This document shows positions 45,521 through 60,990 of a stretch of 64,000 nt of DNA, one piece after another. The notes below the pieces were generated by a model that worked only from the letters and a program-made list of their open reading frames with translations, had not been told where the DNA came from and ran no database searches. Where the stretch lies: NCBI GenBank assembly GCA_950054255.1, contig CATLOR010000002.1:143106-207105 (forward strand), read 5' to 3'. The position numbers and the translations under genes were made by a program. Source of the stretch: an uncultured Rickettsiales bacterium (GTDB taxonomy: Bacteria; Pseudomonadota; Alphaproteobacteria; Micavibrionales; GCA-2720935). The stretch's first letter is position 1, and the number at the start of each line of letters is the position of its first letter.

Positions 45521-46326
45521 GGTGATGTCAGACTAAATCGAACTATTCTCCAAAAGCATACTACGTCAAGTTTTAGGCTACAAGAATTTCATTCCACGCA
45601 TCAAGCGAGGATTGTCTTAAATCTTTAAATGTGTCTCTTTTTTCGTTGTGTCTTTCGTGATTAAAATAGTTTTGGAATTGCGATTGTATCGCGGTGAATT
45701 TTTGAAGGGATCCCATTGATCGGAACCTGTTCATGATTTTTTCTCGCCGTCGAAAATGGAGGTGAGAGTTTTCAACTAAGTTGTTTTTATAGCGTGTCGT
45801 ATTTTGTGAAAATTTCATATTCATGCGCTGTAAAGCAGCACCATAAGAGCCCAATTTATCTGTAATAATTTCTCTTGGTTTCCCGTGTTGTGAGACTAGT
45901 TTCTTAAGCACCTTAAGGGCGGCACGCCGATCCCGCTTTTTCGTTACGTAACAATCTAAAACCGTTCCTTCATGGTCAATCGCTCGCCATAAGTAATGTA
46001 ACTCACCATTAATTTTGACGAATACCTCGTCGATGTGCCATCGCCATTTCGATGGGGCATGGCTACGTTTTTTCTTTAGCTCTTTGGCAATAATGGGACC
46101 CAGATGGTTCCACCAATATCGAACCGTTTCATGACAAATATCAATACCACGTTCATACAAAATATCTTCAACATTTCGTAAGCTGAGTGGATAACGAACG
46201 TAATATTGCACAGCTAATTTGATGATTTCAGGGCTGGTTTTATAGTATTTAAAGGGATCTATTTTACTCATATCAGATTTTATCATGTTATATTTTTCAA
46301 AAACATCGTTTTAATCTGACAAGACC
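45521..46326 (-). mobile_element. IS6-family insertion sequence, copy 1 (806 bp)
   Basis: Terminal inverted repeats GGTGATGTCAGACTAAATCGA (45521...) and GGTCTTGTCAGATTAAAACGA (reverse complement ending at 46326). Single transposase ORF. Confidence 0.9.
45573..46286 (-). CDS. IS6-family transposase (DDE)
   Basis: 237 aa, the size and sequence style of IS26/IS6 Tnp (WRWHIDEVFVKINGELHYLWRAIDHEG..., ITDKLGSYGAA...NNLVENSH). Confidence 0.9.
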   Translation of the reverse strand: MIKSDMSKIDPFKYYKTSPEIIKLAVQYYVRYPLSLRNVEDILYERGIDICHETVRYWWNHLGPIIAKELKKKRSHAPSKWRWHIDEVFVKINGELHYLWRAIDHEGTVLDCYVTKKRDRRAALKVLKKLVSQHGKPREIITDKLGSYGAALQRMNMKFSQNTTRYKNNLVENSHLHFRRREKIMNRFRSMGSLQKFTAIQSQFQNYFNHERHNEKRDTFKDLRQSSLDAWNEILVA

Positions 46327-46641
46327 ATTTTGACAAATATCTCGTCGATGTGCCATCGCCATTTCGAAGGTGCATGGTTACGTTTTTTCTTTAGCTCTTT
46401 TGCAATAATAGGACCTAAATGATTCCACCAATAACGAACCGTCTCATGACAAATATCAATGCCACGCTCATGCAAAATGTCTTCAACATTTCGCAGACTA
46501 AGCGGATAACGAACGTAATATTGTACCGCTAGTTTGATAATTTCAGGACTGGTTTTATAGTATTTGAAAGGATCTATTTTGCTCATAAGTAAGTCTATCA
46601 TGAACAGAATTAGGAAAACGTTATTTTAGTCTGACAAGACC
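46327..46641 (-). mobile_element. truncated older IS6-family copy (upstream IR plus 5' ~270 nt of tnp), interrupted by copy 1
   Basis: Own IR GGTCTTGTCAGACTAAAATAACG (reverse complement ending at 46641). The 96-aa ORF 46311-46601 matches Tnp residues 1 to ~90, then reads into the IR of copy 1 (...FVKMVLSD stop). Its nucleotide sequence is diverged from copy 1. Confidence 0.85.
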
Positions 46642-46654
46642 CTCATGGTTAGCC

Positions 46655-48835
46655 TCATATTTTTGTTAAATTTAAACGCAGCGCATTGCCGACTACGCTG
46701 ACGGAACTCAGCGACATGGCGGCAGCGGCGAAAATGGGTGAGAGTAAAATCCCGAAGACCGGATACAAAACACCTGCGGCAATCGGCACGCCCGCAGCGT
46801 TATAGATAAACGCGAAAAACAGGTTCTGCCGGATATTGCGCATGGTGGCGCGGGAGAGATTGATCGCCTCGGCAATACCGTTTAAATCACCGCGCAGCAG
46901 CGTTACGCCCGCGCTTTCCATGGCAACATCGGTTCCGGTTCCCATGGCAATACCGACATGCGCAGCCGCCAGTGCGGGCGCATCATTCACACCGTCTCCG
47001 GCCATGGCCACGACTGCGCCTTTATCACGCAGCTCTCCGACAATGCGGCTTTTATCCTCCGGCATTACATCGGCATGCACTTCATCAATGCCGAGCTTTT
47101 CTGCCACCGCGCGGGCGGTCGTTTCGTTATCTCCGGTCAGCATCACGATCTTTAAACCCGCTTTATGAAGGTTTTGAATAGCCTCCGGCGTGGTATCTTT
47201 GATCGGGTCGGAGACGGCAATAACGCCCGCCGCCTTGCCGTTCACGGCCACAAACATGGCTGTCGCGCCTTGCGCCCGTAAATTATCCGCTCCTTCCGTA
47301 AGGGGCGTTATATCCGCGCCTATGGCTTCCATCATTTTACTGTTACCAAGCGCGACCTTGGCACCGCTGACCTGACCTTTCACGCCTTTGCCTGTTATGG
47401 CCTCAAAATCCAGCGCTTTGGGCAATTCCAGATCCTGATCATGGGCGGCGCGGACAATCGCCTCGGCCAGCGGGTGTTCACTGCCTTGTTCCAACGCCGC
47501 AGAAATGGTGAGCAACTCGCTCTCCTCAAAGCCGTCTGCAGTGATAATATCGGTCAGGGCCGGTCGGCCTTGTGTGAGCGTTCCTGTTTTATCGACAATC
47601 AGCGTGTCCACCTTTTCCATGGTTTCCAGCGCTTCGGCGTCTTTGATCAAAACACCAGCCTTTGCGCCGCGACCGACGCCCACCATAATCGACATGGGCG
47701 TGGCCAGTCCCAAAGCGCACGGACAGGCGATAATCAAAACGCTGACGGCGGCAATCAAGGCGTAGCTAAAGGCCGGAGCTGGGCCAACCAGCGACCAGAC
47801 AATAAAGGCGATGATGGCGATCACAATGACAATCGGCACAAACCAGCCCGCGACGAGGTCGGCCATGCGCTGAATAGGAGCGCGGCTCCGCTGCGCGTCC
47901 GCCACCATTTTAACGATCTGCGCCAGCATCGTATCGCGCCCGACTTTTTCAGCGCGGATAATGATCGAGCCGTTGGCGTTGACCGTGGCTCCTATAACCT
48001 TGGATCCGGCCTGTTTTTCGACAGGCATCGGTTCGCCTGTGACCATGGATTCATCAATATGGCTGCTGCCTTCACTCACAACGCCGTCCACTGGCACTTT
48101 TTCGCCTGGACGGATCCGCAAATGGTCACCGACCTGAATATCTTCGATGGCAATTTCCTGCGCATCGCCGTTGTCATCAATCCGGTGTGCGGTTTTGGGG
48201 GCCAGCCCCAGCAAGGCTTTAATCGCACCGCCTGTGCGTTCCCGCGCTTTAAGCTCCAGTATTTGCCCCAGCAAGACCAAAGTCACGATCACCGCCGCCG
48301 CTTCAAAATATACTGGCACTGCGCCGCTTTCGCCCCTGAAGGAATCGGGGAAGATATCCGGCGTGACAGTTGCCGCAACGCTGTAAATCCACGCTACGCC
48401 CGTTCCCATAGCGATCAGTGTGAACATATTGAGGTTGCGGCTTTTGACCGATGCCCAGCCGCGTTCAAAGAACGGCCAGCCCGCCCATAAAACAACAGGC
48501 GTGGCGAGGACAAGCTGGATCCAGTTGGAAGTCGTGCCGTCCATAAACTCATGAAAGCCCAGCAAGTGAGATCCCATCTCCAGAATAAAGACCGGAATGG
48601 TGAGGATCAGACCGACCCAGAACCGTCGCCTGAAATCCGTCAGATCTGGGTTTTCGCCTTCATCGCCCGTCATCGTTTCCGGCTCAAGCGCCATGCCGCA
48701 TATGGGGCAAGTCCCAGGGCCTTTTTGAATGACCTCTGGGTGCATCGGGCAGATATAGGTGATCTCGTTCGGATCCACGCCCTCTGGCAGCGGAGCTGGC
48801 TCTTTATGCTCGTGGCTGTGGCAACAATCGCTCAT
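46655..48835 (-). CDS. copA: copper/silver-translocating P1B-type ATPase
   Basis: CPC ([13 protein letters not shown]), [21 protein letters not shown]. The N-terminus has CCHSHEH and a CPMHPEV...CPICGM zinc-ribbon-like metal-binding motif instead of a classical GMTCxxC HMA domain. Confidence 0.9.
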
Positions 48836-48838
48836 GGT

Positions 48839-50164
48839 TTATTCCTTTTCTTCTTTGTAATGTTTGAGGAAGATACGCTCTCCGGCGAAAATGAAGATCA
48901 TCGCCGCAATAGAGACATAAATAACCAGCATGTCGCTTTGCGCTTTCATCCATAAAAACGCGCCCAGCACCACCACATCCATGACGATGGCGGTGATTAG
49001 CACAAAGGCGTTGGCATTGATCTTGTGGCGCAAATACCGAAACACGCCCCAATGGACGGCTATATCCATGACGAGGTAGAAAATAGCGCCCAGCGATGCG
49101 ATCCGGCTGAGATCAAAAAATATGGTCAGGAACATGGCCAGTGCAATCGTGTACACCAGCGTATGTTTTTGAATGTCACCAGGCATCCCGAAATGGCTGT
49201 GCGGCACCAGCTTCATATCGGTGAGCATCGCCAGCATGCGTGAGACGGCAAAAGCACTGGCAATCACGCCGGAGACGGTGGCTATAATCGCCAGCACGAC
49301 CGTAAACCACAGGCCGAAATCACCAAAGGCCGGACGCGCTGCTTCCGCCAGGGCGAAGTTTTTCGCCGCGATAATTTCCGGCAGCGATAAATTCATCGAC
49401 ACCGCCATAGCGACCAGAAAGTAAACAACCACGCAAATTACAATGGAGAGAATAATCGCCCGCCCAACATTGCGGTGCGGATCCACAATCTCCGAGCCGC
49501 TATTGGTGATGGTGGTAAAGCCTTTATAGGCAAGAATGGCCAGAGCTACTGCCGCCAAAAACCCGACAGCGCTGCCGCTGTCTGCGGGCGCAGCGGTCAT
49601 GTTTTCAAAAGAAATGCCGGAAATCCATAGCCCCGCAATCCCGAATGCGGCAATCCCGCCGATCTTTAAGAGCGACATGACAAAGGAAAACGTCCCGATC
49701 ATGCGGTTGCCGGAAATGTTGATGATGAAGGCGAAGATTAATAATCCCACGCCAAGCGCCGGAACGAGCCAGCTATTCTGGTCGATATCAAAGAGCTGTA
49801 GGGTATAGGTGCCAAAGGTGCGGGCCACTAGGCTCTCATTGATGACCATGGAGAAATACATCAATAGCCCGCAAGCGGCTGTAATGGTGCCTTTGCCATA
49901 GGCTTTTTCTAAAAACATGGCGATCCCGCCCGCAGATGGGAACGCATTGGACATTTTCACATAGGAATAAGCGCTAAACGCGGTAATGACCGCTGCCACC
50001 AAAAATGCGAGAGGAAAGTGCGGGCCGGCCAGCTCCGCAATTTGTCCGGTCAGGGCGAAAATTCCTGCGCCAATAATCACGGCTGTCCCCATAGAGACAG
50101 CCCCGATCAGGCTTAAGCTGTTTTCTTTATACTGCGCGGCTTTGCCGTGTTGTGAATGATCCAT
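48839..50164 (-). CDS. APC-superfamily permease (amino acid/polyamine type)
   Basis: 441 aa, about 12 TM, glycine-rich helices typical of the APC fold. Sits 3 nt upstream of copA. Confidence 0.7.
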   Translation of the reverse strand: MDHSQHGKAAQYKENSLSLIGAVSMGTAVIIGAGIFALTGQIAELAGPHFPLAFLVAAVITAFSAYSYVKMSNAFPSAGGIAMFLEKAYGKGTITAACGLLMYFSMVINESLVARTFGTYTLQLFDIDQNSWLVPALGVGLLIFAFIINISGNRMIGTFSFVMSLLKIGGIAAFGIAGLWISGISFENMTAAPADSGSAVGFLAAVALAILAYKGFTTITNSGSEIVDPHRNVGRAIILSIVICVVVYFLVAMAVSMNLSLPEIIAAKNFALAEAARPAFGDFGLWFTVVLAIIATVSGVIASAFAVSRMLAMLTDMKLVPHSHFGMPGDIQKHTLVYTIALAMFLTIFFDLSRIASLGAIFYLVMDIAVHWGVFRYLRHKINANAFVLITAIVMDVVVLGAFLWMKAQSDMLVIYVSIAAMIFIFAGERIFLKHYKEEKE

Positions 50165-50329
50165 TTAGTTTTTACTGCCGCAGCAACCTCCTTGTTTTTC
50201 AGCCTTGTCTGTGTCCGGCTTTTTGGCTTCGCCGTCACAGCAACCGTCTTTTTCTTTTTCCGGCTGGCTGTGATCGTGATGTTTATCGCCGCCGCAACAG
50301 CCGCCGTCTTTGTGATCGTGATGGGTCAT
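50165..50329 (-). CDS. 54-aa Cys-Cys/His-rich putative metal-binding peptide (not in the ORF track)
   Basis: Hand translation: MTHHDHKDGGCCGGDKHHDHSQPEKEKDGCCDGEAKKPDTDKAEKQGGCCGSKN. The ATG overlaps the ICMT stop (ATGA). AAGGAG lies ~9 nt upstream. The stop abuts the APC start codon. Confidence 0.55.
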   Translation of the reverse strand: MTHHDHKDGGCCGGDKHHDHSQPEKEKDGCCDGEAKKPDTDKAEKQGGCCGSKN

Positions 50330-50988
50330 GATGATGCTCCTTTAGTGGTTGGGGTTGATGAAAACTTGGGAATAAAGGCCGGAACATGGGCGGCGTAATC
50401 GTCCCATGCCTTGCCGAAACGCTCCCTTGAATCCTGCTCTTCTTTTTTGGCCAGCCGGATATACATGAAAGTCAAAATCGGGAACAGCACCACGGTCGGG
50501 ATGGTCGGCCATTGCAGCAAAAACCCGAACATAATGGCGATAAAGCCGATATATTGCGGGTGCCGGACTTTTTGATATAAGCCCGCGACCGCCATTTTTC
50601 CGGCGCGTTGAGCTTTGAATAAAACAGGCCATGCCGCCGAGAGAACCCAGAAACCGCCGCCAATAAAGACAAAGCTGGCGAGATGCATCGGATCAAAGTG
50701 CGGGTTGCCTTCAAAGCCCAGGATTGTGTTCCAGAGATGCCCGTTTTCGTGCGTTGTAAAATCAACGCCTGGGTATTTCTCTGCCAGCCAGCCGGACATG
50801 AGATAGATGGTCAGCGGGAAGCCGTACATTTCCGTGAACAGCGCCACCAGAAAACCGGAGAACGCGCCGAAGCTGCGCCAGTCGGCCTTGGTCTGCGGTT
50901 TGGCAAAGCTGAAAGCAAAGATAATGAAAATCAGCGAGTTTAAAATAACCAGGCTCCAGAGGCCGTATGATTGCATTGCATGTTCCAT
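50326..50988 (-). CDS. isoprenylcysteine carboxyl methyltransferase (ICMT)/PEMT-family membrane methyltransferase (CzcN/NccN-like)
   Basis: 220 aa, multi-TM. GLYQKVRHPQYIGFIAIMFGFLLQWPT is the family signature. Confidence 0.75.
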   Translation of the reverse strand: MEHAMQSYGLWSLVILNSLIFIIFAFSFAKPQTKADWRSFGAFSGFLVALFTEMYGFPLTIYLMSGWLAEKYPGVDFTTHENGHLWNTILGFEGNPHFDPMHLASFVFIGGGFWVLSAAWPVLFKAQRAGKMAVAGLYQKVRHPQYIGFIAIMFGFLLQWPTIPTVVLFPILTFMYIRLAKKEEQDSRERFGKAWDDYAAHVPAFIPKFSSTPTTKGASS

Positions 50989-50991
50989 GAT

Positions 50992-51237
50992 TTAGTCCTC
51001 TTTATCCTTGTCTTTATGATCGCCATGCCCGCCGTGACTGCCATGCATAAACACATGGATCAAAGGGCAAGCCAGCAGGATCAGCCATATCCAGTTATTG
51101 CCGATATGCGCGGCATGTTCCTGAATGAGAAGATACGCGGCCACCGCGAAAAAGAAGATGCACGCCATGCCGAACGGTGTTTTCCACCATGGCTTGGTCT
51201 TCTCCGGTTTGTGGTAATGCTCGTGCTCGTGATCCAT
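50992..51237 (-). CDS. DUF2933-family small membrane protein, His-rich
   Basis: 81 aa, two TM. LLACPLIHVFMHGSHGGHGDH matches the DUF2933 pattern as I remember it. Confidence 0.65.
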   Translation of the reverse strand: MDHEHEHYHKPEKTKPWWKTPFGMACIFFFAVAAYLLIQEHAAHIGNNWIWLILLACPLIHVFMHGSHGGHGDHKDKDKED

Positions 51238-51240
51238 TGT

Positions 51241-51663
51241 TTAATCTCCTTTGTGCTTATGATTTGAATGTAAAAACGTAACTATCGGGCAATCGCTCAA
51301 AGGCAGATCGCCGCCTGGACACTCCGCCGCCAGATCTTCGAGGCTTCTTTTCATCGCCATAAGATCCTCGATATCTTTTTGGGCTTCGGTAATTTTGGTT
51401 TCTGTAAGATCCAGCATGTCCTGCGCAGTACCGCCGTCTGATGCGTGTAATTCAAGAAGGGATTGGATTTCCGAGAGCTTAAAGCCCAAAGACTTAGCGC
51501 GTTTGATGAAGGCTACCCGCGCGACAGACGCAGCATCATAAAGTCTGTAGCCAGAACTTGTCCGACCAACAGGCTCGATGAGCTTCAGCGTTTCATAATA
51601 ACGGATCGTATCCGTTCTCACGCCGCTTTCTCTTGCTAATTGTCCAATCGTCATATCTGCCAT
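51241..51663 (-). CDS. MerR-family heavy-metal-responsive regulator (CueR/HmrR-like)
   Basis: N-terminal wHTH (MTIGQLARESGVRTDTIRYYE), dimerisation helix, C-terminal metal loop CPGGDLPLSDCP. No Cys at the position that typifies divalent-metal sensors. Confidence 0.85.
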   Translation of the reverse strand: MADMTIGQLARESGVRTDTIRYYETLKLIEPVGRTSSGYRLYDAASVARVAFIKRAKSLGFKLSEIQSLLELHASDGGTAQDMLDLTETKITEAQKDIEDLMAMKRSLEDLAAECPGGDLPLSDCPIVTFLHSNHKHKGD

Positions 51664-51686
51664 TATTCAATCCTTATATTTGGGAG

Positions 51687-51716
51687 CGTATACCTTGGAG
51701 TATGCTCCAAGGTCAA
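51687..51716 (-). promoter_or_regulatory. MerR-type operator/promoter
   Basis: Minus strand reads TTGACC-TTGGAGCATACTCCAAGG-TATACG. There is a perfect 9-bp dyad ACCTTGGAG-N4-CTCCAAGGT (51692-51713) overlapping the -35, with an 18-19 nt spacer. The layout parallels the E. coli PcopA CueR site (TTGACCTTCC...GGAAGGT). Confidence 0.65.
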
Positions 51717-51720
51717 GCCC

Positions 51721-52296
51721 TTAATGCGGATGCCCGCTGTGATCATCGTGATCACCTTGATCACCGTGCGGGTCTGCTTCTGCCGCGCCGTGGTGTCCTG
51801 CGCCAGCATCCTCACCATGCGCGTGGCTTCCATGACCGCCATCGCCAGAGATTTCCGGCATACGCATCACGCCCATGCCGTGGCGGTAAACGACTTCGCC
51901 GCCCTTATATCCGGTCACGGCCAACAAGCCGGAGGCCAGCAAGATCAAAACAACAAAGCCGGAGCTGACGGATTTTGCGCCGCGATGTTTGGCCAGCGAC
52001 CATATCGCCAGAACGCCGAATATGGACGCTGTTACCAGCGCCCAATTCTTATGGTCAGTCATGGCCGCGTGGGATGGGCCGTCATGCGCCACGGTGTTAT
52101 AGGCATAGAAACCAGCCAAAACCGTACCGACTGTGATGCCAGCACCAATCCAGAGATTCCACCGCGCGACAATCAGAAGGTTCGGCCTCCTTAAAACCAG
52201 TCCGGCCAGATAAAGCAGCGATGACAGGCTTAAGAGTGCCACCGTGAAATGCACAAAGATTGGGTGCCAATTTGGTATGATTTCTATGTCCATCAT
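51721..52296 (-). CDS. DUF2231-family membrane protein with His-rich C-terminal tail
   Basis: N-terminal NWHPIFVHFTVAL motif, 4 TM, tail GGHGSHAHGEDAGAGHHGAAEADPHGDQGDHDDHSGHPH. Confidence 0.6.
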   Translation of the reverse strand: MMDIEIIPNWHPIFVHFTVALLSLSSLLYLAGLVLRRPNLLIVARWNLWIGAGITVGTVLAGFYAYNTVAHDGPSHAAMTDHKNWALVTASIFGVLAIWSLAKHRGAKSVSSGFVVLILLASGLLAVTGYKGGEVVYRHGMGVMRMPEISGDGGHGSHAHGEDAGAGHHGAAEADPHGDQGDHDDHSGHPH

Positions 52297-52311
52297 TGTT
52301 TTAGTCCTCTC

Positions 52312-53013
52312 TTAGTGTTGGTGATCGCCATGACCAGCTTCCGGCGTCATAATTTTTGTGATCCGGTAAACCTTGTCTTCGCCAAGCTCTACATGAAAAT
52401 GAATGTCCTGTTCTGGCTTCAAAGTGCTCAAATCAACACCCTCTGCCACTGCTAAATCCATAGTCATTTCAGGCCATTTCAAAGCTGGTATAGGTTCATG
52501 CGTAAGGTTGAGTTTATTATTCTCAGCATCAATGCTGTGAACCACACCCTTACCCATGACCGCTACGCTATCTTCTGACATATCATGGCCAGAATGATCC
52601 ATTTTCCCATGGCTTGAATGATCCATAGGCATTTGCTTAATTTTTTGTTCTTGGGTGTTATTAAAAACGTAGTTTTTCATCGTTTCCTCGCTCTCGAAAT
52701 AATAAACATTGTTACTTGAATCTACGGCAATAACAGCTTCGGCTTTATCAACTGAATTACCACTTACAGGGTCAATAGCTGAGCGTATTGCTTCATCATT
52801 TTTCAGTCTTTCCTCGCACATTGAGCAACATCCGTAATAAGTCTTATCTCCTACTGGAACGGAAATTTGCTCTTTATCAAAAACGCTGTCATTCACCATG
52901 CAAATGTATTTTGATTCAACGATCTTGAGCTGGTTTTTACTCATTGAAGTGTCTTCTGCCGCTATAGCGGGAAAAGCTATAAATGCCATTAGTAATGTTA
53001 ATATTATTTTCAT
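52312..53013 (-). CDS. periplasmic YHS/TRASH-like plus CusF-like Cu(I)/Ag(I)-binding fusion protein
   Basis: Signal peptide MKIILTLLMAFIAFPAIA. YYGCCSMCEERL (YHS-like). C-terminal GVVHSID...ALKWPEMTMDL reproduces the CusF His/Trp/Met-x-Met site. Start set at 53013 (ATGA overlap with the upstream gene). Confidence 0.7.
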   Translation of the reverse strand: MKIILTLLMAFIAFPAIAAEDTSMSKNQLKIVESKYICMVNDSVFDKEQISVPVGDKTYYGCCSMCEERLKNDEAIRSAIDPVSGNSVDKAEAVIAVDSSNNVYYFESEETMKNYVFNNTQEQKIKQMPMDHSSHGKMDHSGHDMSEDSVAVMGKGVVHSIDAENNKLNLTHEPIPALKWPEMTMDLAVAEGVDLSTLKPEQDIHFHVELGEDKVYRITKIMTPEAGHGDHQH

Positions 53014-53480
53014 TGGTTTTTCTCCTTTAAGGTTATGGTTGGTAAATGAACATCCCACAGCTTTTGCACTGCAAAATATGTCACCATGACAGACCATCCA
53101 ATCAGAACCAGGCCGTTTAAAACCTGAACTCCAGTGATGAACTGCATAGCTCCATGTGGAAAAACATCGCCTATACCAAGCGATGAATAAGTGGCGGCTG
53201 AAAAATATATGTAGCCAAAAAAATTATCGTGGGCGATACCGCTTAATGGCTCTGCTCCAAAAGTGTGCACCATTACCCAATAGACTGTGCCGTAAATCCA
53301 AACAGCTACCGTATGGGCAGAAAAAATCGCAACAACTAGGAAGAACATTAAAGGACGATTTCGCAAATTGCGTTTTGCAATAATCCGCAACACAACCCCT
53401 AATATTTCATAAAAAATAGAAGTCGTTAAAAGCACTAAAGCAATACTAATGAAGATAGCTACAGACATATTCTCATACAT
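53010..53480 (-). CDS. two-TM ion-channel (Ion_trans_2-like) protein
   Basis: 156 aa. Pore-loop-like YFSAATYSSLGIGDVFP (a variant of the TxGYGD filter) between TM helices. Confidence 0.5.
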   Translation of the reverse strand: MYENMSVAIFISIALVLLTTSIFYEILGVVLRIIAKRNLRNRPLMFFLVVAIFSAHTVAVWIYGTVYWVMVHTFGAEPLSGIAHDNFFGYIYFSAATYSSLGIGDVFPHGAMQFITGVQVLNGLVLIGWSVMVTYFAVQKLWDVHLPTITLKEKNQ

Positions 53481-56400
53481 TAGGCACTCTCCATTTTTGA
53501 ATTACTAAAGCGCCGGCCTTCCCAGAGATAATAGATAACGGGAATAACGATCAGGGTGAGCAGCGTGGTGGTGATCATGCCGCCGACCATCGGCAGAGCG
53601 ATGCGGCGCATCACATCCGCGCCAAGTCCGGCGAAAATGAAGATCGGCAGCAATCCGGCGAATTCGGTAATCACCGTCATCAATACAGGCCGGATGCGCA
53701 TCAACGCGCCTTCAAAGACCGCTTCGCTGAGTTGCTCTTTAGTGGCGGGGCTGGTTTCGCGCACACGCAGATCGATATAAACCATCATGATCGTGGCGGT
53801 TTCGACCGCCAGCCCGCCGAGCGCGATAAAGCCCACTCCGGCGGCAACGGAGAGATTATAATCCGCCAGATAAATCGCCCACATCCCGCCGACCATGGCC
53901 ACAGGCAGCGAGAGCATCACCATCAGCGTCCGGTCGGTGCGTCCGAAATAAATCATCAGCAAAACAAAGATGGCAAAGCCAGCGGCGGGGATGGCGATAG
54001 AGAGCTGTTTTTTCGCCTCCAGCATCTGTTCAAACTGGCCTGACCATTCCACGGCATAGCCCGCAGGAAGATCGACATTATCGCGCACGGCGATTTGCGC
54101 GTCTTTCACATAGGAGCCGATATCGCGGTCCTCAATATCGACAAAGACCCAGCCTGTCAGCCGTGCATTTTCCGACTTGATCATTGGCGGGCCTTCGACG
54201 AATTCGATCTTCGCCAGCTCACCCAGCGGGATATGCTGGCCTTGGGGTGTGGGGACTAAAATATCAGATAGATCCTCTGGGTCTTCGCGAAACGGGCGGT
54301 CATAGCGCAGCATGATGTTATAGCGCTCACGCCCCTGAATGGATTCGGACATTTTCATTCCACCGAGCGCGGTGCCGATAATATTCTGGAATACGCCCAG
54401 ATCAATATTGCGCCGCGCCAGTTCGTCTCTGTCTGGGGTCACTTCCAGATATTTCCCGCCTGTAACGCGGTCGGCAAAAGCGGAGCGTGTGCCATCAACG
54501 TCTTTGATCGCAGCCTCAATATCCAAAGCCACGCGGCCTATGGTGTCGAGATGATCGCCGGAAATTTTAATGCCGATGGGCGTGCGGATTCCCGTCGAGA
54601 TCATATCCATACGGATTTTGATCGGATAGCCCCATGAATTGACTACCCCAGGCAATTTGACGCGGGCATTCATATCCTTGATCAAATCCTCCGGCGTCAT
54701 GCCTTTACGCCAGTCCTCGCGCGGTTTGAGTTTGATCCATGTCTCGATCATCGAAATCGGTGCCGGATCCGTGGCGGTATCAGCGCGGCCAACCTTGCCG
54801 AATACGTGATGGACTTCCGGCACATCCTTGATCATGCGGTTGGTCTGCTGCAGGATTTCCTTGGCCTTGGTGATCGACACCCCAGGCAAAGTGGTCGGCA
54901 TATAAAGCAATTCGCCCTCATACAGCGCGGGCATGAATTCCGAGCCTGTGCGCATAATCGGCACGGCCATGCTTGCGATCAAGGCAATGGTGACAATAAT
55001 TGTCAGCGCGGGTTTGGCCAGCACATGGCGCAGGAGCGGACGGTAGAGCTTTAATAGCCCCGCATTGACCGGATTGACTTCGGCCTTTTTGATTTTACCG
55101 CGCAGCATCCATAGCATAAGGATCGGAATGACCGTCACCGATAAAATGGCGGCAAAGCCCAGCACATAGGTCTTGGTGAAGGCCAGCGGTGAAAACAGGC
55201 GGTAGGATTGCCCTGTGAGCGCCAGTACAGGAAGGAAGGAGATCGTGATAATCAGCAGCGAGAAAAACAGCCCAGGGCCGACTTCCTTGGCGGCATCCAG
55301 TATGGCTTTGTGCCTTTGGTCTTTTGGCGCATCCTCCGATAGCTCCGCCAGCTTCCTGTGCGCGTTTTCGACCATGACAATCGAGGCATCCACCATTGTC
55401 CCAATCGCAATCGCAATCCCGCCCAGCGAGACGATATTGGCGGTGATGCCTTGCGCCGACATAATGATAAATGCGCCCAAGACGCCAAGCGGCAGCACAA
55501 TCAGCGCGACAAAGGCCGAGCGGACATGCAGCAAAAAGATAAACACGACCAGCGAGACAATAATCGCCTGTTTGATCAGCGTGTCGGTGAGATAATTCAC
55601 AGCGCCTTCAATCAGCGGGGCGCGGTCATAAACAGGGACGATCTCCACGCCTTCGGGCAGGCCTTGCTGCAGCTCGGCCAGTTTTTCTTTTACGCCCTCA
55701 ATCACATGCAAAGCGTTCTCGCCGGCCCGCATCACAACAACGCCAGCCACGACTTCACCTTCGCCGTTTAGCTCGGTCACGCCGCGCCGCAGCTCCGGCC
55801 CCTCAATCACGCGGGCAACATCCTCCAGCTTCACAGGGGTGCCGTCTCTGGCATAGAGAACAATCTTTTTAAGCTGGCTGATATCGGTGACATAGCCTTT
55901 GGAGCGGATCATCAGCTCCATCTCAGCTTTTTCAATGACGCGGCCTCCGGCATCCATACTGGCGCTTTTAACCGCTTCCATTAGGCGCTTTAAGGGAATA
56001 TCAAAGGCACGGAGACGGTTGGGATCAATGAGGATCTGGTATTCTTTGACAAACCCGCCGACCGAGGCCACCTCCGATACGCCGTCCACGGTCGCCAGCT
56101 CGAATTTTAAAAACCAGTCCTGCAAACTGCGCAGATCAGAGAGATCATGATCGCCGCTTTTATCAATCAGCGCATATTGATAGACCCAGCCCACACCTGT
56201 GGCATCGGGGCCGATCTGCGGCACGACATTGGGCGGCAGATCGCCCTGAATTTTGGACAGCGCCTCGATCACGCGGCTCCGCGCCCAATACTGGTCGATT
56301 TTGTCTTCAAAAATGATATAGACAAAGGATGTGCCGAACATCGAAAACCCGCGCACATTTTTGGTTTCCGGTAGCCCTAACATCGTGGTCGAGAGCGGAT

Positions 56401-56644
56401 ATGTGACCAGATCCTCAACAATCTGCGGTGACTGCCCGACAAAATCGGTGCGGATAATCACCTGCGTATCCGACATATCGGGGATGGCATCCAGCGGGGT
56501 TTTCTGCACCGCCAGAATGCCCGCCACCAATAATGCGATCATCATCACAATAATCAGCAACTGGTTATTGACCGAATACTCAATGACTTTCGCCACAAAG
56601 GATTGCGAGGGGTCGCGCGTCTGGTTTGGATCAGTGGTTGGCAT
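53480..56644 (-). CDS. cusA: heavy-metal efflux RND pump CusA (Cu+/Ag+)
   Basis: 1054 aa. The N-terminus aligns closely with E. coli CusA from memory (DAIPDMSDTQVIIRT...PQIVEDLVTYPL...VRGFSMFG...YWARSRV...GPDATGVGW). All three CusA Met-triad contexts are conserved (LLYMPTT, ISMIETW, RMDMISTG). Confidence 0.9.
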   Translation of the reverse strand: MPTTDPNQTRDPSQSFVAKVIEYSVNNQLLIIVMMIALLVAGILAVQKTPLDAIPDMSDTQVIIRTDFVGQSPQIVEDLVTYPLSTTMLGLPETKNVRGFSMFGTSFVYIIFEDKIDQYWARSRVIEALSKIQGDLPPNVVPQIGPDATGVGWVYQYALIDKSGDHDLSDLRSLQDWFLKFELATVDGVSEVASVGGFVKEYQILIDPNRLRAFDIPLKRLMEAVKSASMDAGGRVIEKAEMELMIRSKGYVTDISQLKKIVLYARDGTPVKLEDVARVIEGPELRRGVTELNGEGEVVAGVVVMRAGENALHVIEGVKEKLAELQQGLPEGVEIVPVYDRAPLIEGAVNYLTDTLIKQAIIVSLVVFIFLLHVRSAFVALIVLPLGVLGAFIIMSAQGITANIVSLGGIAIAIGTMVDASIVMVENAHRKLAELSEDAPKDQRHKAILDAAKEVGPGLFFSLLIITISFLPVLALTGQSYRLFSPLAFTKTYVLGFAAILSVTVIPILMLWMLRGKIKKAEVNPVNAGLLKLYRPLLRHVLAKPALTIIVTIALIASMAVPIMRTGSEFMPALYEGELLYMPTTLPGVSITKAKEILQQTNRMIKDVPEVHHVFGKVGRADTATDPAPISMIETWIKLKPREDWRKGMTPEDLIKDMNARVKLPGVVNSWGYPIKIRMDMISTGIRTPIGIKISGDHLDTIGRVALDIEAAIKDVDGTRSAFADRVTGGKYLEVTPDRDELARRNIDLGVFQNIIGTALGGMKMSESIQGRERYNIMLRYDRPFREDPEDLSDILVPTPQGQHIPLGELAKIEFVEGPPMIKSENARLTGWVFVDIEDRDIGSYVKDAQIAVRDNVDLPAGYAVEWSGQFEQMLEAKKQLSIAIPAAGFAIFVLLMIYFGRTDRTLMVMLSLPVAMVGGMWAIYLADYNLSVAAGVGFIALGGLAVETATIMMVYIDLRVRETSPATKEQLSEAVFEGALMRIRPVLMTVITEFAGLLPIFIFAGLGADVMRRIALPMVGGMITTTLLTLIVIPVIYYLWEGRRFSNSKMESA

Positions 56645-58322
56645 GTGCGCCTCCTGCGGGCATTTCGGTTATTTCAGGGGCTTCGGCCTCTACCTTGTCC
56701 GGCCAGTCGATTTTCATCGGATGACCTTCGCCGTACGGGTTCTCAACCTCATCGCCCAGCTGGAGCCAATAGGTGTCCAGACCGTGCGCCATATAGAATT
56801 GCAGCCCTTTGGATTTATAGTGCTGGGGTTTGCCCTCCAGCAGCCATGGTTTGAGCGCTGTGACCAGATTATTCAGGCTGTTCTGCCATTCCTTATCGGT
56901 CACATTGTCCTGTGCGGCTTTGAGTGCCATTTCCGCATCTTCCAAAACAAACTGCAGCTTGGTGCCACGGAAGACGGGCATCAAATGATCGCCCAGCGTG
57001 ATGGCGGGCATAATCATATTCGGATTGGGTGTGCGTCCGGTCGTCAGCTCTTTTTGGATATAAATGGCGGCATCAATCAGATGGTCGATCATCGCCAGCT
57101 GGTCATCCGTCATGTCTAAAAGAGCAAGCGGCATCTGCATGCGCTGCATTTTGCGGAAGGATTCCCGCAAGGCACTTTCAGAGTCGATCAGGAATTGTCC
57201 GCTGACCACCACCTTGTCTTTTTCAGCCAAGCCGTCCAGCACTTCCGTGCGGCCTTTATATTTCAATCCGGCCAGAATTTTGCGCGGCTGGAAGCGCCCC
57301 TGATCCATGGCCACCACCACAAAGTCGCCGTCCTTGCTTTTAAGAATAGCATCGCCTGGGATGGACAAACGGCGATCAACGCCTGTTTCCAGCTCCACAT
57401 CGGCGTAAGCGCCAGGCTTTAATTTGCCGTCCGCATTATCCAGCACCAGCCGGATCCGGCCTGTGCGCGTGGCGCGGTCAATCGTGGGATAGATATAATC
57501 AATGGCGGCTTCTTTTTCTTTTACCCCAAGGGCTGGGAGAGAGACCATCGCCTTTGTCTCTTTGGTAATATACGGGATATCCTGCTCGGCCACGCTGACA
57601 TCAACCCAGACCGTGTCGTAATTTTGCAGGGTCATCAAATTCATACCTGGCTTGGCATAGGTGCCGTCACGCACATTCATCGCACTGACCAGACCGTCAC
57701 TTTCCGCGTAGTACGGGACGCTTTGAAAGGCTTTGCGGCGGCTCTTGACCTCTTCGATGGCGCGTTTTTGCATGCCTAAAGACACGAGGCGCTTGGCGGC
57801 GGAGTCAATCCGGCCTTTATAGCCTGTGGCAATAGCGCTTATCAAATCCTGCTGCGCAGAAATCAGCGCCGGGCTGTAGAGATTAAAAAGCAGATCGCCT
57901 TTTTTCACTTCATCGCCCATGGCCTGGACTTTCAAATCCTCGACCCAGCCTTCCACGCGGGCGGAGATATCAAATTGCAGCCGGACATTTTCCGTCACAT
58001 CGCCATAGCTGCGCACCAAGGTGCCAAAGCTGGCCATCTGCGCTTCCTCGGTGCGGATGCCTGTATTCTGGATCGTTTCAGGGTCGATGGTGACGGTGGT
58101 GCGTTCCATACCGCCTTTATCACTTTTATCCATGCTTTCCATGGCTGCGCCGTCATCTTCACCTTCCAACTCCACCAGATCCATGCCGCAAATCGGGCAT
58201 GTGCCTGGGCGATCTGCGACATAATGCGGATGCATGGGGCATGTGTATTGTTCGGCTTGCGCTATCGCGGGGACGGCAAATAAAGCCAGTATTAAAAAGA
58301 ATGCGGGGATAAACTGTCTCAT
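56631..58322 (-). CDS. cusB: RND periplasmic adaptor CusB-like, with N-terminal CPMHP...CPICGM metal-binding motif and extended C-terminal domain
   Basis: Signal peptide. [24 protein letters not shown]. HlyD/MFP barrel-sandwich core. About 150 extra C-terminal residues (DUF3347-like helical region). Confidence 0.85.
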   Translation of the reverse strand: MRQFIPAFFLILALFAVPAIAQAEQYTCPMHPHYVADRPGTCPICGMDLVELEGEDDGAAMESMDKSDKGGMERTTVTIDPETIQNTGIRTEEAQMASFGTLVRSYGDVTENVRLQFDISARVEGWVEDLKVQAMGDEVKKGDLLFNLYSPALISAQQDLISAIATGYKGRIDSAAKRLVSLGMQKRAIEEVKSRRKAFQSVPYYAESDGLVSAMNVRDGTYAKPGMNLMTLQNYDTVWVDVSVAEQDIPYITKETKAMVSLPALGVKEKEAAIDYIYPTIDRATRTGRIRLVLDNADGKLKPGAYADVELETGVDRRLSIPGDAILKSKDGDFVVVAMDQGRFQPRKILAGLKYKGRTEVLDGLAEKDKVVVSGQFLIDSESALRESFRKMQRMQMPLALLDMTDDQLAMIDHLIDAAIYIQKELTTGRTPNPNMIMPAITLGDHLMPVFRGTKLQFVLEDAEMALKAAQDNVTDKEWQNSLNNLVTALKPWLLEGKPQHYKSKGLQFYMAHGLDTYWLQLGDEVENPYGEGHPMKIDWPDKVEAEAPEITEMPAGGAHANH

Positions 58323-59572
58323 TCTGACACCTCCTGAAGTGCTGGCTCTTGATAAGCGCCTATGATGTTGGAATTGAATTCGGCGGCGCGGCTGATATGC
58401 ATCTCTTTGACCGCTGCCAGTTGTGCCTGAATGTTCAGGCGGTCGATTTTGGCCAGCAAAACAGAATCCAGATTTTCGGTTCCGGCTTCATAATTACGCT
58501 GCGCGGCATCGATCTTCTTTTTCATCGCCCAGTCTTTATCCTGCAGGACTTTGACGTTCTTGGCGGCGGCATCACGGTTGCTCTGCAGCGCGGTCATCTG
58601 TTTGTCCCAGAGGCGGCGCACATCGTCATAAGCGAATTTGGCGCTGCGCTCACGCTCTCTGGCGGCTTTGAGTTTGGGTTTTTGGTTGCTGTCCGCCCAG
58701 AGCGGTATGCTGACCTGCGCCTGTATTGAAAACCAGTCATCGCCGGAGAAGCTGCCGCGCTCACCATCCTCGCGCTGCTTATAGACAGCGTTGATCCCGA
58801 AATTCGGCAGGAAGGCGGCATCGGCGATTCCCACATCCTTTTTGGCGATATCGATATCCTCGGCGGCAATCATCACCGGATAAAGCGCTGTGGGGTTTTT
58901 GTCCCACGCCATATCAGCAATCTCCGGCATGTCGATATCCGGCACATCATCAATCAGGCGTATAAATTCGGCTTCAATAGAGGCCAGCCGCGCATCCAGA
59001 TCATTGAGCTTGCGTTCGGCCTCGGCGCGTTCTACGTCCACTTCGGAAAATCTTTGATAAACCGCGCGGCCTGATTCAATCTGGCCTTTAAACGTGTTCT
59101 CCAGCTCCTTGTAATGGCCGAGCTGGGTCTTGATCAGTTTTTTCTGGGTTTTAACACTCTCATATTCGGCCAGCTTGGAGATCAGCATAAAGCGCAACCG
59201 TGCATTGGTGTAATCCGCCATGAGCTTTTGCTTTTCCGACATTTGCTCATAGCGCTCAGATTTGGCTTCCCGCGCGGCAGGGTTGGGAATGCTTTGTGAA
59301 AACCCGATCACTTTGGAGGTTGGCAGGAAGCGGTCAAAAGCCGGATCCGATATTGGCATGTTATCAACGCCGATCATGAACATCGGATCGGGCAGGCCCA
59401 GCTCACCTTCAGCTTGTGATTTAAGCGCTTCGCTGCCCGCTAAAATGCTCTCCACTTGCGGGTGTTCACTAAGGCGCTTTACATACGCCTCAAAGGTCTC
59501 GGCATGGGCGGGCATCGATGCCAGCAGAGCAAAAAGCGCGGTGAATATTATTGTATGGTGTTTGTTTCGCAT
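58319..59572 (-). CDS. cusC: TolC-family outer-membrane factor CusC-like
   Basis: 417 aa, signal peptide, two OEP repeats. 4-nt overlap with cusB. Confidence 0.8.
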   Translation of the reverse strand: MRNKHHTIIFTALFALLASMPAHAETFEAYVKRLSEHPQVESILAGSEALKSQAEGELGLPDPMFMIGVDNMPISDPAFDRFLPTSKVIGFSQSIPNPAAREAKSERYEQMSEKQKLMADYTNARLRFMLISKLAEYESVKTQKKLIKTQLGHYKELENTFKGQIESGRAVYQRFSEVDVERAEAERKLNDLDARLASIEAEFIRLIDDVPDIDMPEIADMAWDKNPTALYPVMIAAEDIDIAKKDVGIADAAFLPNFGINAVYKQREDGERGSFSGDDWFSIQAQVSIPLWADSNQKPKLKAARERERSAKFAYDDVRRLWDKQMTALQSNRDAAAKNVKVLQDKDWAMKKKIDAAQRNYEAGTENLDSVLLAKIDRLNIQAQLAAVKEMHISRAAEFNSNIIGAYQEPALQEVSE

Positions 59573-59625
59573 GGTCTGATCTCCTTTTGGTTAAGCGAAA
59601 AGCGCATAACAAAATGCACTTAGCG

Positions 59626-59648
59626 CCCGTCATATTTCCAATGACAGG
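59626..59648. promoter_or_regulatory. candidate operator dyad upstream of cusC
   Basis: CCCGTCAT-ATTTCCA-ATGACAGG (7 of 8 matching arms), 54-76 nt upstream of the cusC ATG. The TGTCAT/ATGAC half-sites recall copper-box elements, but in a different arrangement. Confidence 0.3.
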
Positions 59649-59669
59649 CACACTAAAAGATATCCGTAT

Positions 59670-60077
59670 TTAGATGCGGAAGCGTTGTGTGGTGAGGTAG
59701 AGAGGGCGAGACGGAAGCTTATTCGCGCTCTCAAAAGGTGGGCCACGAATGACATTTGGTCTGTAGAGGAAATCATTATAATCAATAGCTAGATTTGCCC
59801 AAACAAAATCAACATCGGAAGAATCTTGAACCAAATCGTAGCTATTATCTATTTGAGCAAGATCAATCCCGAGACAGTCCATATTCAACATAAAATCACA
59901 ATCTGTTGATTGCTCATTCGATTCGTGACAAGGAGGTAAATCAGATTTTGTTTGTTCAGAAGCCTCTTTTGCATGAGCCTGCATAGGACAAAAAGACACG
60001 CTGCACGCTAAAGATAGCGTGAATATCGCAAAAATCATTAATGTCGAAACAGAAAATCTCATAATTTCATTGTACAC
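59670..60077 (-). CDS. hypothetical secreted protein (135 aa)
   Basis: Hydrophobic N-terminus (STLMIFAIFTLSLACS). Lower G+C than the cus genes. No recognisable motif. Confidence 0.4.
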   Translation of the reverse strand: MYNEIMRFSVSTLMIFAIFTLSLACSVSFCPMQAHAKEASEQTKSDLPPCHESNEQSTDCDFMLNMDCLGIDLAQIDNSYDLVQDSSDVDFVWANLAIDYNDFLYRPNVIRGPPFESANKLPSRPLYLTTQRFRI

Positions 60078-60149
60078 CTAAATAGTTAAATTTCAACTTT
60101 AATTATTTTATTCGTAATCTAAGTCAATTGGTTACTCTTTAGTTTCAAA

Positions 60150-60221
60150 GGTGATGTCAGACTAACTCGAACTATTCTCCAAAAGGGTGATGTCAGACTA
60201 AATCGAACTATTCTCCAAAAG
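60150..60221. repeat. tandem 2 x 36-bp duplication of the IS6 end (solo end remnant plus the end of copy 3)
   Basis: GGTGATGTCAGACTAACTCGAACTATTCTCCAAAAG (60150-60185) is followed directly by GGTGATGTCAGACTAAATCGAACTATTCTCCAAAAG (60186-60221). One mismatch. Confidence 0.9.
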
Positions 60222-60990
60222 CATACTACGTCAAGTTTTAGGCTACAAGAATTTCATTCCACGCATCAAGCGAGGATTGTCTTAAATCTTTAAATGTGTC
60301 TCTTTTTTCGTTGTGTCTTTCGTGATTAAAATAGTTTTGGAATTGCGATTGTATCGCGGTGAATTTTTGAAGGGATCCCATTGATCGGAACCTGTTCATG
60401 ATTTTTTCTCGCCGTCGAAAATGGAGGTGAGAGTTTTCAACTAAGTTGTTTTTATAGCGTGTCGTATTTTGTGAAAATTTCATATTCATGCGCTGTAAAG
60501 CAGCACCATAAGAGCCCAATTTATCTGTAATAATTTCTCTTGGTTTCCCGTGTTGTGAGACTAGTTTCTTAAGCACCTTAAGGGCGGCACGCCGATCCCG
60601 CTTTTTCGTTACGTAACAATCTAAAACCGTTCCTTCATGGTCAATCGCTCGCCATAAGTAATGTAACTCACCATTAATTTTGACGAATACCTCGTCGATG
60701 TGCCATCGCCATTTCGATGGGGCATGGCTACGTTTTTTCTTTAGCTCTTTGGCAATAATGGGACCCAGATGGTTCCACCAATATCGAACCGTTTCATGAC
60801 AAATATCAATGCCACGTTCGTACAAAATGTCTTCAACGTTTCGCAGGCTAAGCGGGTAACGAACATAGTACATGATCGCAAGTTTTATAATTTCAGGGCT
60901 GGTTTTGTAATATTTAAAGTGATTTATTTTTGTCATTATTAAGATTATCACGGCAAAAACCGTATAACATCATTTTAATCTGACAAGACC
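60186..60990 (-). mobile_element. IS6-family insertion sequence, copy 3 (805 bp)
   Basis: Same IRs as copy 1. 60186-60810 is identical by eye to 45521-46145. The last ~180 bp (tnp 5' end) is diverged. Confidence 0.9.
60238..60951 (-). CDS. IS6-family transposase (DDE)
   Basis: 237 aa. Identical to the copy-1 Tnp from about residue 28 onward, with a different N-terminal ~27 aa. Confidence 0.9.
   Translation of the reverse strand: MIILIMTKINHFKYYKTSPEIIKLAIMYYVRYPLSLRNVEDILYERGIDICHETVRYWWNHLGPIIAKELKKKRSHAPSKWRWHIDEVFVKINGELHYLWRAIDHEGTVLDCYVTKKRDRRAALKVLKKLVSQHGKPREIITDKLGSYGAALQRMNMKFSQNTTRYKNNLVENSHLHFRRREKIMNRFRSMGSLQKFTAIQSQFQNYFNHERHNEKRDTFKDLRQSSLDAWNEILVA

Follow-up and report, generated by a model that had tools for sequence, protein, structure and literature searches.

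Which roles can be assigned to four genes that lie, closely packed, between the regulator gene merR and the pump gene copA of a metal-resistance operon? The question is raised by a locus of an uncultured Rickettsiales bacterium, found in the 64,000-nucleotide stretch of contig CATLOR010000002.1 analysed here (the window), where the order merR-DUF2933-ICMT-CC-APC-copA occurs. In this order DUF2933 stands for a small membrane protein, ICMT for an ICMT/PEMT-family membrane methyltransferase, CC for a short peptide with vicinal cysteine pairs and APC for an ApcT-like permease. We propose that the six genes would form a Cu(I)/Ag(I)-inducible operon in a mobile island bounded by insertion sequences (IS) of the IS6 family, and that the extra genes represent three independent add-on modules whose roles may be read from sequence and context. 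This whole reading, including the roles, has in our view about an even chance of being correct.

All six genes are located on the minus strand. First comes merR (51241..51663), which encodes a MerR-family metal regulator of 140 amino acids with matches to Pfam MerR_1 and MerR-DNA-bind, followed by DUF2933 (50992..51237; 81 amino acids; PF11666, E=1.7e-21), the methyltransferase gene (50326..50988; 220 amino acids; PF04191 and PF04140) and the gene for the CC peptide (50165..50329; 54 amino acids with three vicinal Cys pairs, no family). The permease gene (48839..50164; 441 amino acids, about 12 helices; PF13520, E=2.7e-30) and copA (46655..48835; 726 amino acids), which encodes a P1B-1-type Cu(I)/Ag(I) ATPase with an E1-E2 ATPase domain and the heavy-metal-binding domain (HMBD) PF19335, complete the set. 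A preliminary description of this DNA had called the same genes between merR and copA and had pointed to their tight coupling; every open reading frame (ORF) was found at its place on the minus strand, and the successive junctions measure 3, 3, -4, 0 and 3 nt, with a single MerR-type promoter ahead. Shine-Dalgarno sequences are present before DUF2933, ICMT, CC and copA. The permease gene has none of its own and its start codon abuts the stop codon of the CC peptide (TAAATG), hence its translation is probably coupled to that of the CC peptide. The arrangement is far beyond chance, because the same order recurs elsewhere and the 54-codon ORF belongs to a conserved family. Scans for terminators and sigma-70 promoters within the operon were uninformative.

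The 57-nt gap 5' of merR holds CTTGACCTTGGAGCATACTCCAAGGTATACGCT, in which a -35 element (TTGACC) and a -10-like element enclose a perfect 8+8 dyad. The whole promoter/operator at 51685..51716 of the minus strand reads TTGACC TTGGAG-CATA-CTCCAAGG TATACGCT, with the dyad lying between -35 and -10 in a long spacer of about 18-20 bp. Such a dyad operator within an over-spaced promoter, TTGACC-TTGGAGCATACTCCAAGG-TATACGCT, is what defines the target promoters of MerR-family regulators. The pattern occurs only once in the 64-kb window, where 0 matches are expected by chance, and an identical dyad is found 5' of merR in L007 and L019 (L-numbers denote the other genome, metagenome and plasmid loci that were compared with the window). 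MerR-family promoters such as those of E. coli zntA and copA share such a layout and come closest to the promoter found here. The regulator itself shows the MerR-type architecture of a helix-turn-helix, a dimerisation helix and a Cys-containing metal loop (PF13411, PF09278, PF00376). Read from the translation, the loop is C115-X9-C125, and the position equivalent to CueR Ser77 holds no Cys. The match to the CueR equivalog TIGR02044 does not reach the level of a CueR (106 bits versus a cut-off of 147), and the ZntR and MerR models give similar scores, likewise below cut-off, so the regulator is not assignable among the three. The loop and the lack of a Cys at the Ser77 position, taken with the P1B-1 pump, would point to a monovalent metal. 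Given the promoter, the dyad and the tight junctions, the six genes are most simply seen as one metal-inducible operon with the regulator as first gene, which would be transcribed from the promoter at 51716-51685 in response to Cu(I) or Ag(I).

The pump is well defined. Its translation contains the CPC, N-x6-YN-x4-P and MSLSS-x5-N motifs, i.e. the transmembrane metal-site signature of P1B-1 ATPases, as well as DKTGT, TGE, HP and GDGxND; E1-E2_ATPase and Hydrolase domains were matched in Pfam, and the score against TIGR01511 (620 bits) lies far above the cut-off of 397. The N-terminus consists of a CC/His tail followed by the CPMHP...CPICGM HMBD (PF19335), and no HMA domain was found in CopA by the Pfam and NCBIfam scans. 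The system thus resembles the E. coli CueR-CopA (cue) system in its MerR-family activator, its long-spacer dyad promoter and its P1B-1 Cu(I) ATPase. It differs in that the E. coli regulator is encoded divergently, whereas here it is the first gene of the operon, in the regulator loop (C-X7-C in CueR, C-X9-C here), in the HMA-less CopA with its CC/His tail and HMBD, and in the four extra genes. A CPMHP...CPICGM domain PF19335 is likewise present in CusB, encoded in the same island (56631-58322), and it replaces the usual Met-rich or HMA modules in both CusB and CopA (46655-48835), which suggests that a metal hand-over design may be common to both pumps.

Does the set occur as a unit elsewhere? 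Two reciprocal surveys were made, which took the best 80 each of roughly 550 permease and roughly 550 ICMT loci. The permease survey covers 79 orthologous loci (68-97% identical) with neighbours counted within 10 kb, and the ICMT survey covers 80 metagenome loci (57-83% identical), 43 of them at least 5 kb long. The full gene order recurs in L007, a Phycisphaerales metagenome-assembled genome with a permease 97% identical, in L011 and in L098-L102; the latter represent all five inspected contigs (5/5) among those with an identical permease. With a second Cys-rich peptide type the full order is also found in L037, L065 and L080. Among the 79 permease loci, 57 have copA or cusABC as neighbours (copA in 46, cusA in 32), 28 have DUF2933, 28 have ICMT and 22 have both. 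Multicopper oxidase, CopB, cupredoxin, CusF and cytochrome c are further neighbours. The permease orthologues span at least eight phyla (Planctomycetota, Alpha- and Gammaproteobacteria, Campylobacterota, Patescibacteria, Thermodesulfobacteriota, Deinococcota, Lentisphaeria and Sericytochromatia), and relatives were found on 117 plasmids, 48 of them at 60-80% identity. On one of the plasmids, from Nitratireductor (L192, NZ_CP139721.1, 6321-8326), a CopZ-like HMA gene, DUF302 and the permease stand divergent from cueR-copA, and several plasmids and loci have small DUF302 and DUF5676 proteins in the neighbourhood of the permease.

The preliminary description had regarded the set as a single functional module. 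Its co-occurrence is real in so far as the order recurs in other genomes and metagenomes and is not unique to this island, but the unity does not hold. The four genes fall into three separate recombining modules, namely DUF2933+ICMT, the CC peptide and the permease, as follows from the two surveys and from the mosaic islands L015 and L016. In these near-identical islands copA is 100% identical to that of the window, beyond about 48890 the permease and the CC peptide show only 63-86% identity, the ICMT gene is entirely absent, and identity is back to 94-97% from cusA onward, a pattern that reads as cassette exchange inside one island. More distant loci have DUF2933-CC-APC-CopA without ICMT (L017, L019), and DUF2933-ICMT-CC-CopA without the permease is found in L014 and L105-108. 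Seen from the methyltransferase, DUF2933 lies directly 5' of ICMT in about 75 of the 80 loci; of the 43 longer ones, 41 have DUF2933 and 26 have copA, and a permease orthologue occurs in just two. Another widespread element has the composition MerR-81aa-DUF2933-ICMT-127aa-flavoprotein-ATPase. The permease, in turn, is as often found beside cusA or copper oxidase/copB without DUF2933 and ICMT. It follows directly after cusA, overlapping it, in L001-6, L009-14, L025, L063 and L081, and cusCBA-APC also occurs without DUF2933, ICMT and CC. In many loci it directly precedes copA, in L076 it directly follows it, and on Alteromonas and Salinimonas plasmids it comes after copper oxidase-copB.

What could the permease transport? 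The protein matches PF13520 with 106 bits (cut-off 27), and its profile aligns over the full length with ApcT of Methanocaldococcus jannaschii (MJ0609, 3GIA; E=7e-46, residues 12-436 of 441), a protein of the same length. K167 is aligned to the proton-coupling K158 of ApcT, a column at which the K158A mutant chain 3GI8 shows A, and it is invariant in the permease alignment (A1). The permease also has two patterns known from APC proteins that transport amino acids, GAGIF in TM1 and YxGF...N..E...P.RN in TM6. On the basis of the full-length ApcT match, the lysine and these two patterns, the permease is most likely a proton-coupled amino-acid transporter. Its identity to ApcT is about 30% or less, and its context here, unlike that of ApcT, is metal resistance. 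ApcT was reportedly characterised by Shaffer et al. in 2009 as a proton-coupled amino-acid transporter of broad specificity.

Under metal stress the permease may import amino acids of the metal-ligand or thiol type, for example cysteine; copper is buffered by thiol and imidazole amino acids, and the recurring small Cys-rich or HMA neighbours give a hint towards cysteine. Alternatively, it may import those amino acids whose Fe-S-dependent synthesis is poisoned by Cu(I) or Ag(I). Both metals destroy Fe-S dehydratases and cause amino-acid auxotrophies, and Macomber and Imlay are said to have found in 2009 that inactivation of these dehydratases by Cu(I) leads to auxotrophy for branched-chain amino acids. 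A general coupling of the permease to periplasmic thioredoxin-fold proteins, as in a cysteine/cystine shuttle, was considered and given up as weak, since the redoxin/DsbA pair that follows the permease is confined to one island lineage (L001-6, L009, L010, L012, L014).

The conserved occurrence of the permease as a multi-phylum passenger of copper islands is apparently new. A literature search on amino-acid, APC or ApcT-type permeases together with copper genes gave nothing relevant, and the main text of a study on plasmid-borne copper clusters of Alteromonas never uses the word "permease", though the plasmids hold an orthologue (PMC8478169). Already known are the MerR/P1B-1 operons, cusCBA, the IS6 pseudo-compound transposons and the location of DUF2933-ICMT beside copA.

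The second module consists of DUF2933 and ICMT, which are almost always paired and move together with P1B ATPases. DUF2933 scores 76.5 bits against PF11666 (cut-off 21), has two predicted helices with His-rich tails and, over 25 loci, a conserved EHxAH motif and a second one that reads LLACPLxHxFMHG or, over a longer stretch, LLxCPLMHxFMHGGH; it looks like a two-helix small membrane protein that binds metal. Two copies of the island from marine metagenomes, identical in other respects, have DUF2933 called with only 48 amino acids (L099, 8928-9074; L101, 814-960), probably owing to a frameshift or truncation, which suggests that DUF2933 may be lost without loss of the island. The profile of the ICMT-like protein aligns with residues 98-193 of Ma-ICMT (4A2N; E=1e-5), including VRHPQYIG and KKEEQDSRERFGKAWDDYAAHVP. 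ICMT/PEMT enzymes are recognised by a C-terminal cofactor-binding pattern RHPxY ... EE..L..FG..Y..Y; the protein retains this region with RHPQY and EE...FG..W..Y, and R142, H143, P144, Y146, E183, E184, F191, G192 and Y198 are invariant in the family alignment (A2). The same alignment shows four further invariant residues, His80, His84, His97 and His102, within the loop that joins helices 2 and 3; judged from ICMT topology, this loop would face the periplasm, and it is a candidate metal site. The N-terminal half of the protein resembles none of the characterised members. All NCBIfam equivalogs remain far below their cut-offs (LmtA 48.5/325, ICMT 35/160, MddA 28/270 bits), and the structural model (pLDDT, the predicted local distance difference test, of 66) found the ICMT structures 5V7P, 5VG9 and 4A2N as top Foldseek matches, weakly so (TM-score 0.27-0.35, E>=0.03).

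Taken together, DUF2933 may bind metal at the membrane via its His-rich tails, the EHxAH loop and the CPLMH motif, and the ICMT-like enzyme may carry out an S-adenosylmethionine-dependent methylation of a membrane-embedded acceptor. A lipid phosphate or carboxylate is the best guess for the latter, given that among the curated models LmtA, a lipid A phosphate methyltransferase, scores highest. Hence, with low confidence, the pair could methylate a lipid-type acceptor in the membrane in response to metal, which would be bound by DUF2933. The C-terminus of DUF2933 was also considered as the methyl acceptor; the C-termini are variable (ED, EEK, REA, PSA, HSH) and the idea was dropped. Fusions of DUF2933 and ICMT, which would have hinted at a physical complex of the two, were found neither among the top 120 homologues nor among the 80 metagenome loci.

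According to the preliminary description, ICMT-like proteins were known only from czc/ncc determinants, which is out of date. Clusters of merR-copA-cupredoxin-DUF2933-ICMT have been published from Alteromonas macleodii and other marine Gammaproteobacteria, where they are located on genomic islands or plasmids and are induced by copper; a function of the pair was not given (PMC8478169). These clusters share with the present operon the MerR regulator, the P1B ATPase, the DUF2933-ICMT pair and the island or plasmid location, and the same plasmids hold a permease orthologue (62-64% identical) within about 3 kb. They differ from it in that the pair follows copA there and stands between merR and copA here, and in that the operon of the window has no cupredoxin and includes the CC peptide and the permease. 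By its description, CzcN/NccN of Cupriavidus is comparable as an ICMT-family membrane protein encoded beside metal efflux genes. It accompanies a resistance-nodulation-division (RND) system for Zn, Co and Cd under CzcRS control, in contrast to the MerR/CopA operon here, and the paper on it gives regulation data and no function (PMC10127602). Cupriavidus plasmids were among the tblastn matches (6 records), with the matched genes not identified as czcN. The judgement of the preliminary description that the functions in this set are under-described stands. DUF2933-ICMT was published without a function, and the permease and the CC peptide were not found in the literature searched.

The third module is the CC peptide, with the sequence MTHHDHKDGGCCGG...DGCCDG...GGCCGSKN. 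It is rich in His, Lys and Glu, has no hydrophobic core and is probably disordered. A HMMER search among 1.84 billion representatives yielded a small, rare family of only 16 clusters, 53-63 amino acids long except for one of 97, throughout which the three Cys pairs are conserved with few or no exceptions (C11 in at least 90%). A second CC type, SGGCCCSSKK...SSCCMQE, occupies the same slot 5' of the permease in L029, L037, L044, L050, L065 and L080. Where the permease is absent (L014, L105-108), the CC peptide is encoded 15 nt 5' of copA. Furthermore, the cytosolic N-terminus of CopA in L076 has a segment that aligns to the CC profile over its full length, each of the three Cys pairs included (hhalign 92.5%, E=4.9e-7), two of the three pairs are found at the CopA N-terminus of L071, and the CopAs that accompany the CC peptide have CC+His N-termini. 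The peptide is thus probably a free-standing Cu(I)/Ag(I)-binding module. Since its free and CopA-fused forms mirror CopZ and the HMA domains of CopA, it is read as a buffer or chaperone, and in the cytosol it may serve the HMA-less CopA in a CopZ-like manner.

Like CopZ metallochaperones, the Cys/His tails of P1B ATPases and metallothioneins such as MymT and SmtA, the CC peptide is small, rich in Cys and presumably cytosolic, and its gene neighbours that of the pump; as with CopZ/HMA proteins, some genomes have a similar segment as part of the pump itself, and an HMA protein fills the equivalent slot on the Nitratireductor plasmid. In contrast to CopZ/HMA, it has no HMA fold, no CxxC and no Pfam match, and it carries three CC pairs in a Lys/Glu-rich sequence. 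It can therefore not be counted among the HMA/CopZ proteins, as it had no match in Pfam or NCBIfam, and these scans did not connect it with any known metallothionein family either. A literature search on Cys-rich tails brought nothing relevant to it. The CC peptide family and its fusion to CopA are apparently new.

Several points weigh against the proposed reading. The functions of all four extra genes are deduced from sequence and context alone. The 79 permease and 80 ICMT loci are not independent samples, as whole islands move horizontally, and 22 of the 79 permease loci have no copA or cus gene within reach, some of them being short contigs. The two Pfam scores of the ICMT-like protein (PF04191 25.9 bits, PF04140 24.1 bits) are just at the cut-offs, its Pfam and NCBIfam matches span only the C-terminal, cofactor-binding half, and the methyl acceptor cannot be inferred from a match that covers this half alone. 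The permease lies below every NCBIfam equivalog cut-off, i.e. NCBIfam does not assign a substrate to it. Moreover, N109, E110, K214, M366, D367 and H371 are invariant or nearly invariant (E110 the latter) where ApcT has hydrophobic residues, and a Met/His-rich cytoplasmic loop (M310...H334) is invariant in the permease family. These polar substitutions could mean a substrate other than a standard amino acid. The AlphaFold2 model of the permease, made with 15 close relatives, reached a pLDDT of 39, and the residue positions are taken from the alignment alone.

These residues are the starting point for bolder interpretations. The permease could be a new copper-defence transporter of metal-ligand species or of a thiol amino acid, working with a Cys-rich or HMA partner through a substrate site made of E110, K214, D367 and H371 that would be unlike those of the characterised APC carriers, and DUF2933-ICMT could, separately, perform a metal-triggered methylation of a new acceptor; we regard this combination as possible but unlikely. 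To a metal-ligand substrate of the permease as such we likewise assign a small chance. It was further considered that the permease is a LeuT-fold carrier of a metal ion or a metal-ligand complex such as Cu-histidine or Cu-cysteine, similar to NRAMP in the same superfamily. E110, K214, M366, D367 and H371 fall in helices 3, 6 and 10, the Met/His-rich loop would fit such a carrier, the gene lies within copper islands of at least eight phyla, and it goes together with small metal-binding proteins (CC type 1, CC type 2, the HMA protein). However, the canonical amino-acid signatures of the APC family are retained, from GAGIF in TM1 and the TM6 pattern to the lysine equivalent to K158, and the polar residues, placed by alignment, may or may not face the cavity. 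This makes a metal carrier improbable in our opinion.

The modular composition bears on two further explanations. In the first, which builds on the hypothesis of the preliminary description, all four genes would serve one dedicated pathway for a single small ligand, a thiol or an amino acid, which is taken up by the permease and altered by the methyltransferase, with DUF2933 and the CC peptide in auxiliary roles. This would suit the translational packing of the four genes behind one promoter, the recurrence of the full order (L007, L011, L098-102, and with the second CC type L037, L065, L080) and the fact that the ICMT family includes the thiol S-methyltransferase MddA, to which a weak match of 9e-7 was obtained. 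Yet the modules separate freely, near-identical islands do without ICMT, a permease orthologue occurs in only 2 of 43 ICMT loci, and the permease often stands beside cusA or copB without DUF2933 and ICMT, which renders a single pathway quite improbable. The import of such a ligand may still apply to the permease by itself.

The opposite explanation, that the accessory genes are hitch-hikers of IS and recombination shuffling with no part in metal tolerance, is favoured by the IS-bounded, mosaic nature of the island, by the highly variable arrangements and by the shortened DUF2933 in L099 and L101; it also agrees with the report that czcN responds only to high zinc (PMC10127602). Against it stand the very high protein conservation across phyla (permease 68-97%, ICMT 57-83%), the juxtaposition of the permease to copA, cusA and copB in at least five configurations, the near-obligate DUF2933-ICMT adjacency and the maintained translational coupling, and we consider it no less improbable than the single pathway. 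Finally, the 54-codon CC ORF might be a regulatory leader or coupling ORF that senses the supply of cysteinyl-tRNA via its Cys-Cys codons rather than encode a functional protein, for which the permease start at TAAATG without a Shine-Dalgarno and the two unrelated-looking CC types 5' of the permease could be quoted, but the 0-nt gap leaves no room for an attenuator, the family is conserved beyond the Cys codons, the peptide also directly precedes copA where the permease is absent, and a comparable stretch forms part of CopA in L076 and L071, which makes such a leader very improbable. The operon with its three add-on modules thus remains the explanation that we prefer.

The operon occupies the last third of a 13.5-kb copper/silver island (46644..60149) with a GC content of about 53%, compared to 37% of the chromosome. 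The island is enclosed by two directly oriented IS6-family copies (45521-46328 and 60186-60992), next to which a partial IS6 copy (46327-46643, 315 nt) and an extra IS end (60150-60185, 36 nt) were noticed; the chromosome carries host genes for IF-2, RecJ, PhaC, tRNA-Pro and tRNA-Glu. Contig L015, from another metagenome-assembled genome, aligns exactly over 46642-60149, and the identical permease protein is present in 85 blocks of the public collection, where the island is the same and the genes beyond the IS differ. As the same segment occurs elsewhere with different flanks, the island is mobile. The IS arrangement looks like an IS26-style pseudo-compound transposon; with IS26-type (IS6-family) elements of this kind it shares the two direct IS6 copies around a resistance segment and the varying flanks, and it differs in its cargo, a copper/silver island instead of antibiotic resistance. 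A megablast search of the region against plasmids matched only a 62-nt stretch of the ATPase.

Of the remaining island genes, the first, before cusC (59670-60077), specifies a 135-amino-acid, Cys-containing, secreted-looking protein of no family; 10 of the 79 permease loci have a homologue in the corresponding place. The others all lie on the minus strand. They begin with cusC (58319..59572), cusB with an HMBD (56631..58322) and cusA (53480..56644), all three assigned via the Pfam families of the same-order genes of L098. Translationally coupled to cusA is the gene for a K+-channel-like Ion_trans_2 protein of 156 amino acids (53010..53480; assigned by Pfam), which is also present in 9 of the 79 permease loci and in L105-108; "ion channel" genes likewise occur on the Alteromonas and Salinimonas plasmids. 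Next, a periplasmic protein (52312..53097; Pfam) has a TRASH/YHS-like Cys motif, YYGCCSMCEERL, fused to a CusF domain. Its longest ORF of 261 amino acids probably begins too early, as the protein is elsewhere called with 233 amino acids from MKIILTLL, and the true start is probably at 53013. A DUF2231 membrane protein (51721..52296; Pfam) with a long His/Asp-rich C-terminal tail is encoded just 5' of the MerR promoter, and DUF2231 was found in 18 of the 79 permease loci, usually adjoining merR.

Two further observations concern the permease 3' end and a related island. The 19-nt string TCCGGCGAAAATGAAGATC is identical at 48881-48899, in the 3' end of the permease gene, and at 53627-53645, in the 3' end of cusA, both copies encoding IFIFAG. 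At the first copy the match of L015 to the window goes down from 100% to about 75% identity, and in other islands the permease comes directly after cusA; the repeat may be a recombination scar or a coincidence. In L098 (17466-18899) a 477-amino-acid Glu_synthase-domain protein (flavin mononucleotide, FMN) is encoded inside a copper oxidase/copB island, beside a second ion-channel gene. The location is curious, as the Fe-S enzyme glutamate synthase is known to be poisoned by copper.

Copper/silver resistance islands spread on plasmids and IS-bounded segments and are usually explained by pumps, oxidases and chaperones alone. The present analysis adds an amino-acid-type permease of high conservation that accompanies copper islands in at least eight phyla, and the CC peptide family, which resembles a part of the pump that can be split off. 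If the permease indeed supplies amino acids or thiol ligands during metal stress, the known damage of Cu(I) and Ag(I) to Fe-S enzymes and amino-acid supply would be tied directly to the genes found in the islands. The CzcN-like DUF2933-ICMT pair has now become testable, through its near-obligate partnership, its candidate metal residues and the natural ICMT-less alleles in otherwise identical islands, and cultured hosts with these genes on plasmids are available among Alteromonas, Salinimonas, Roseovarius and Phaeobacter.

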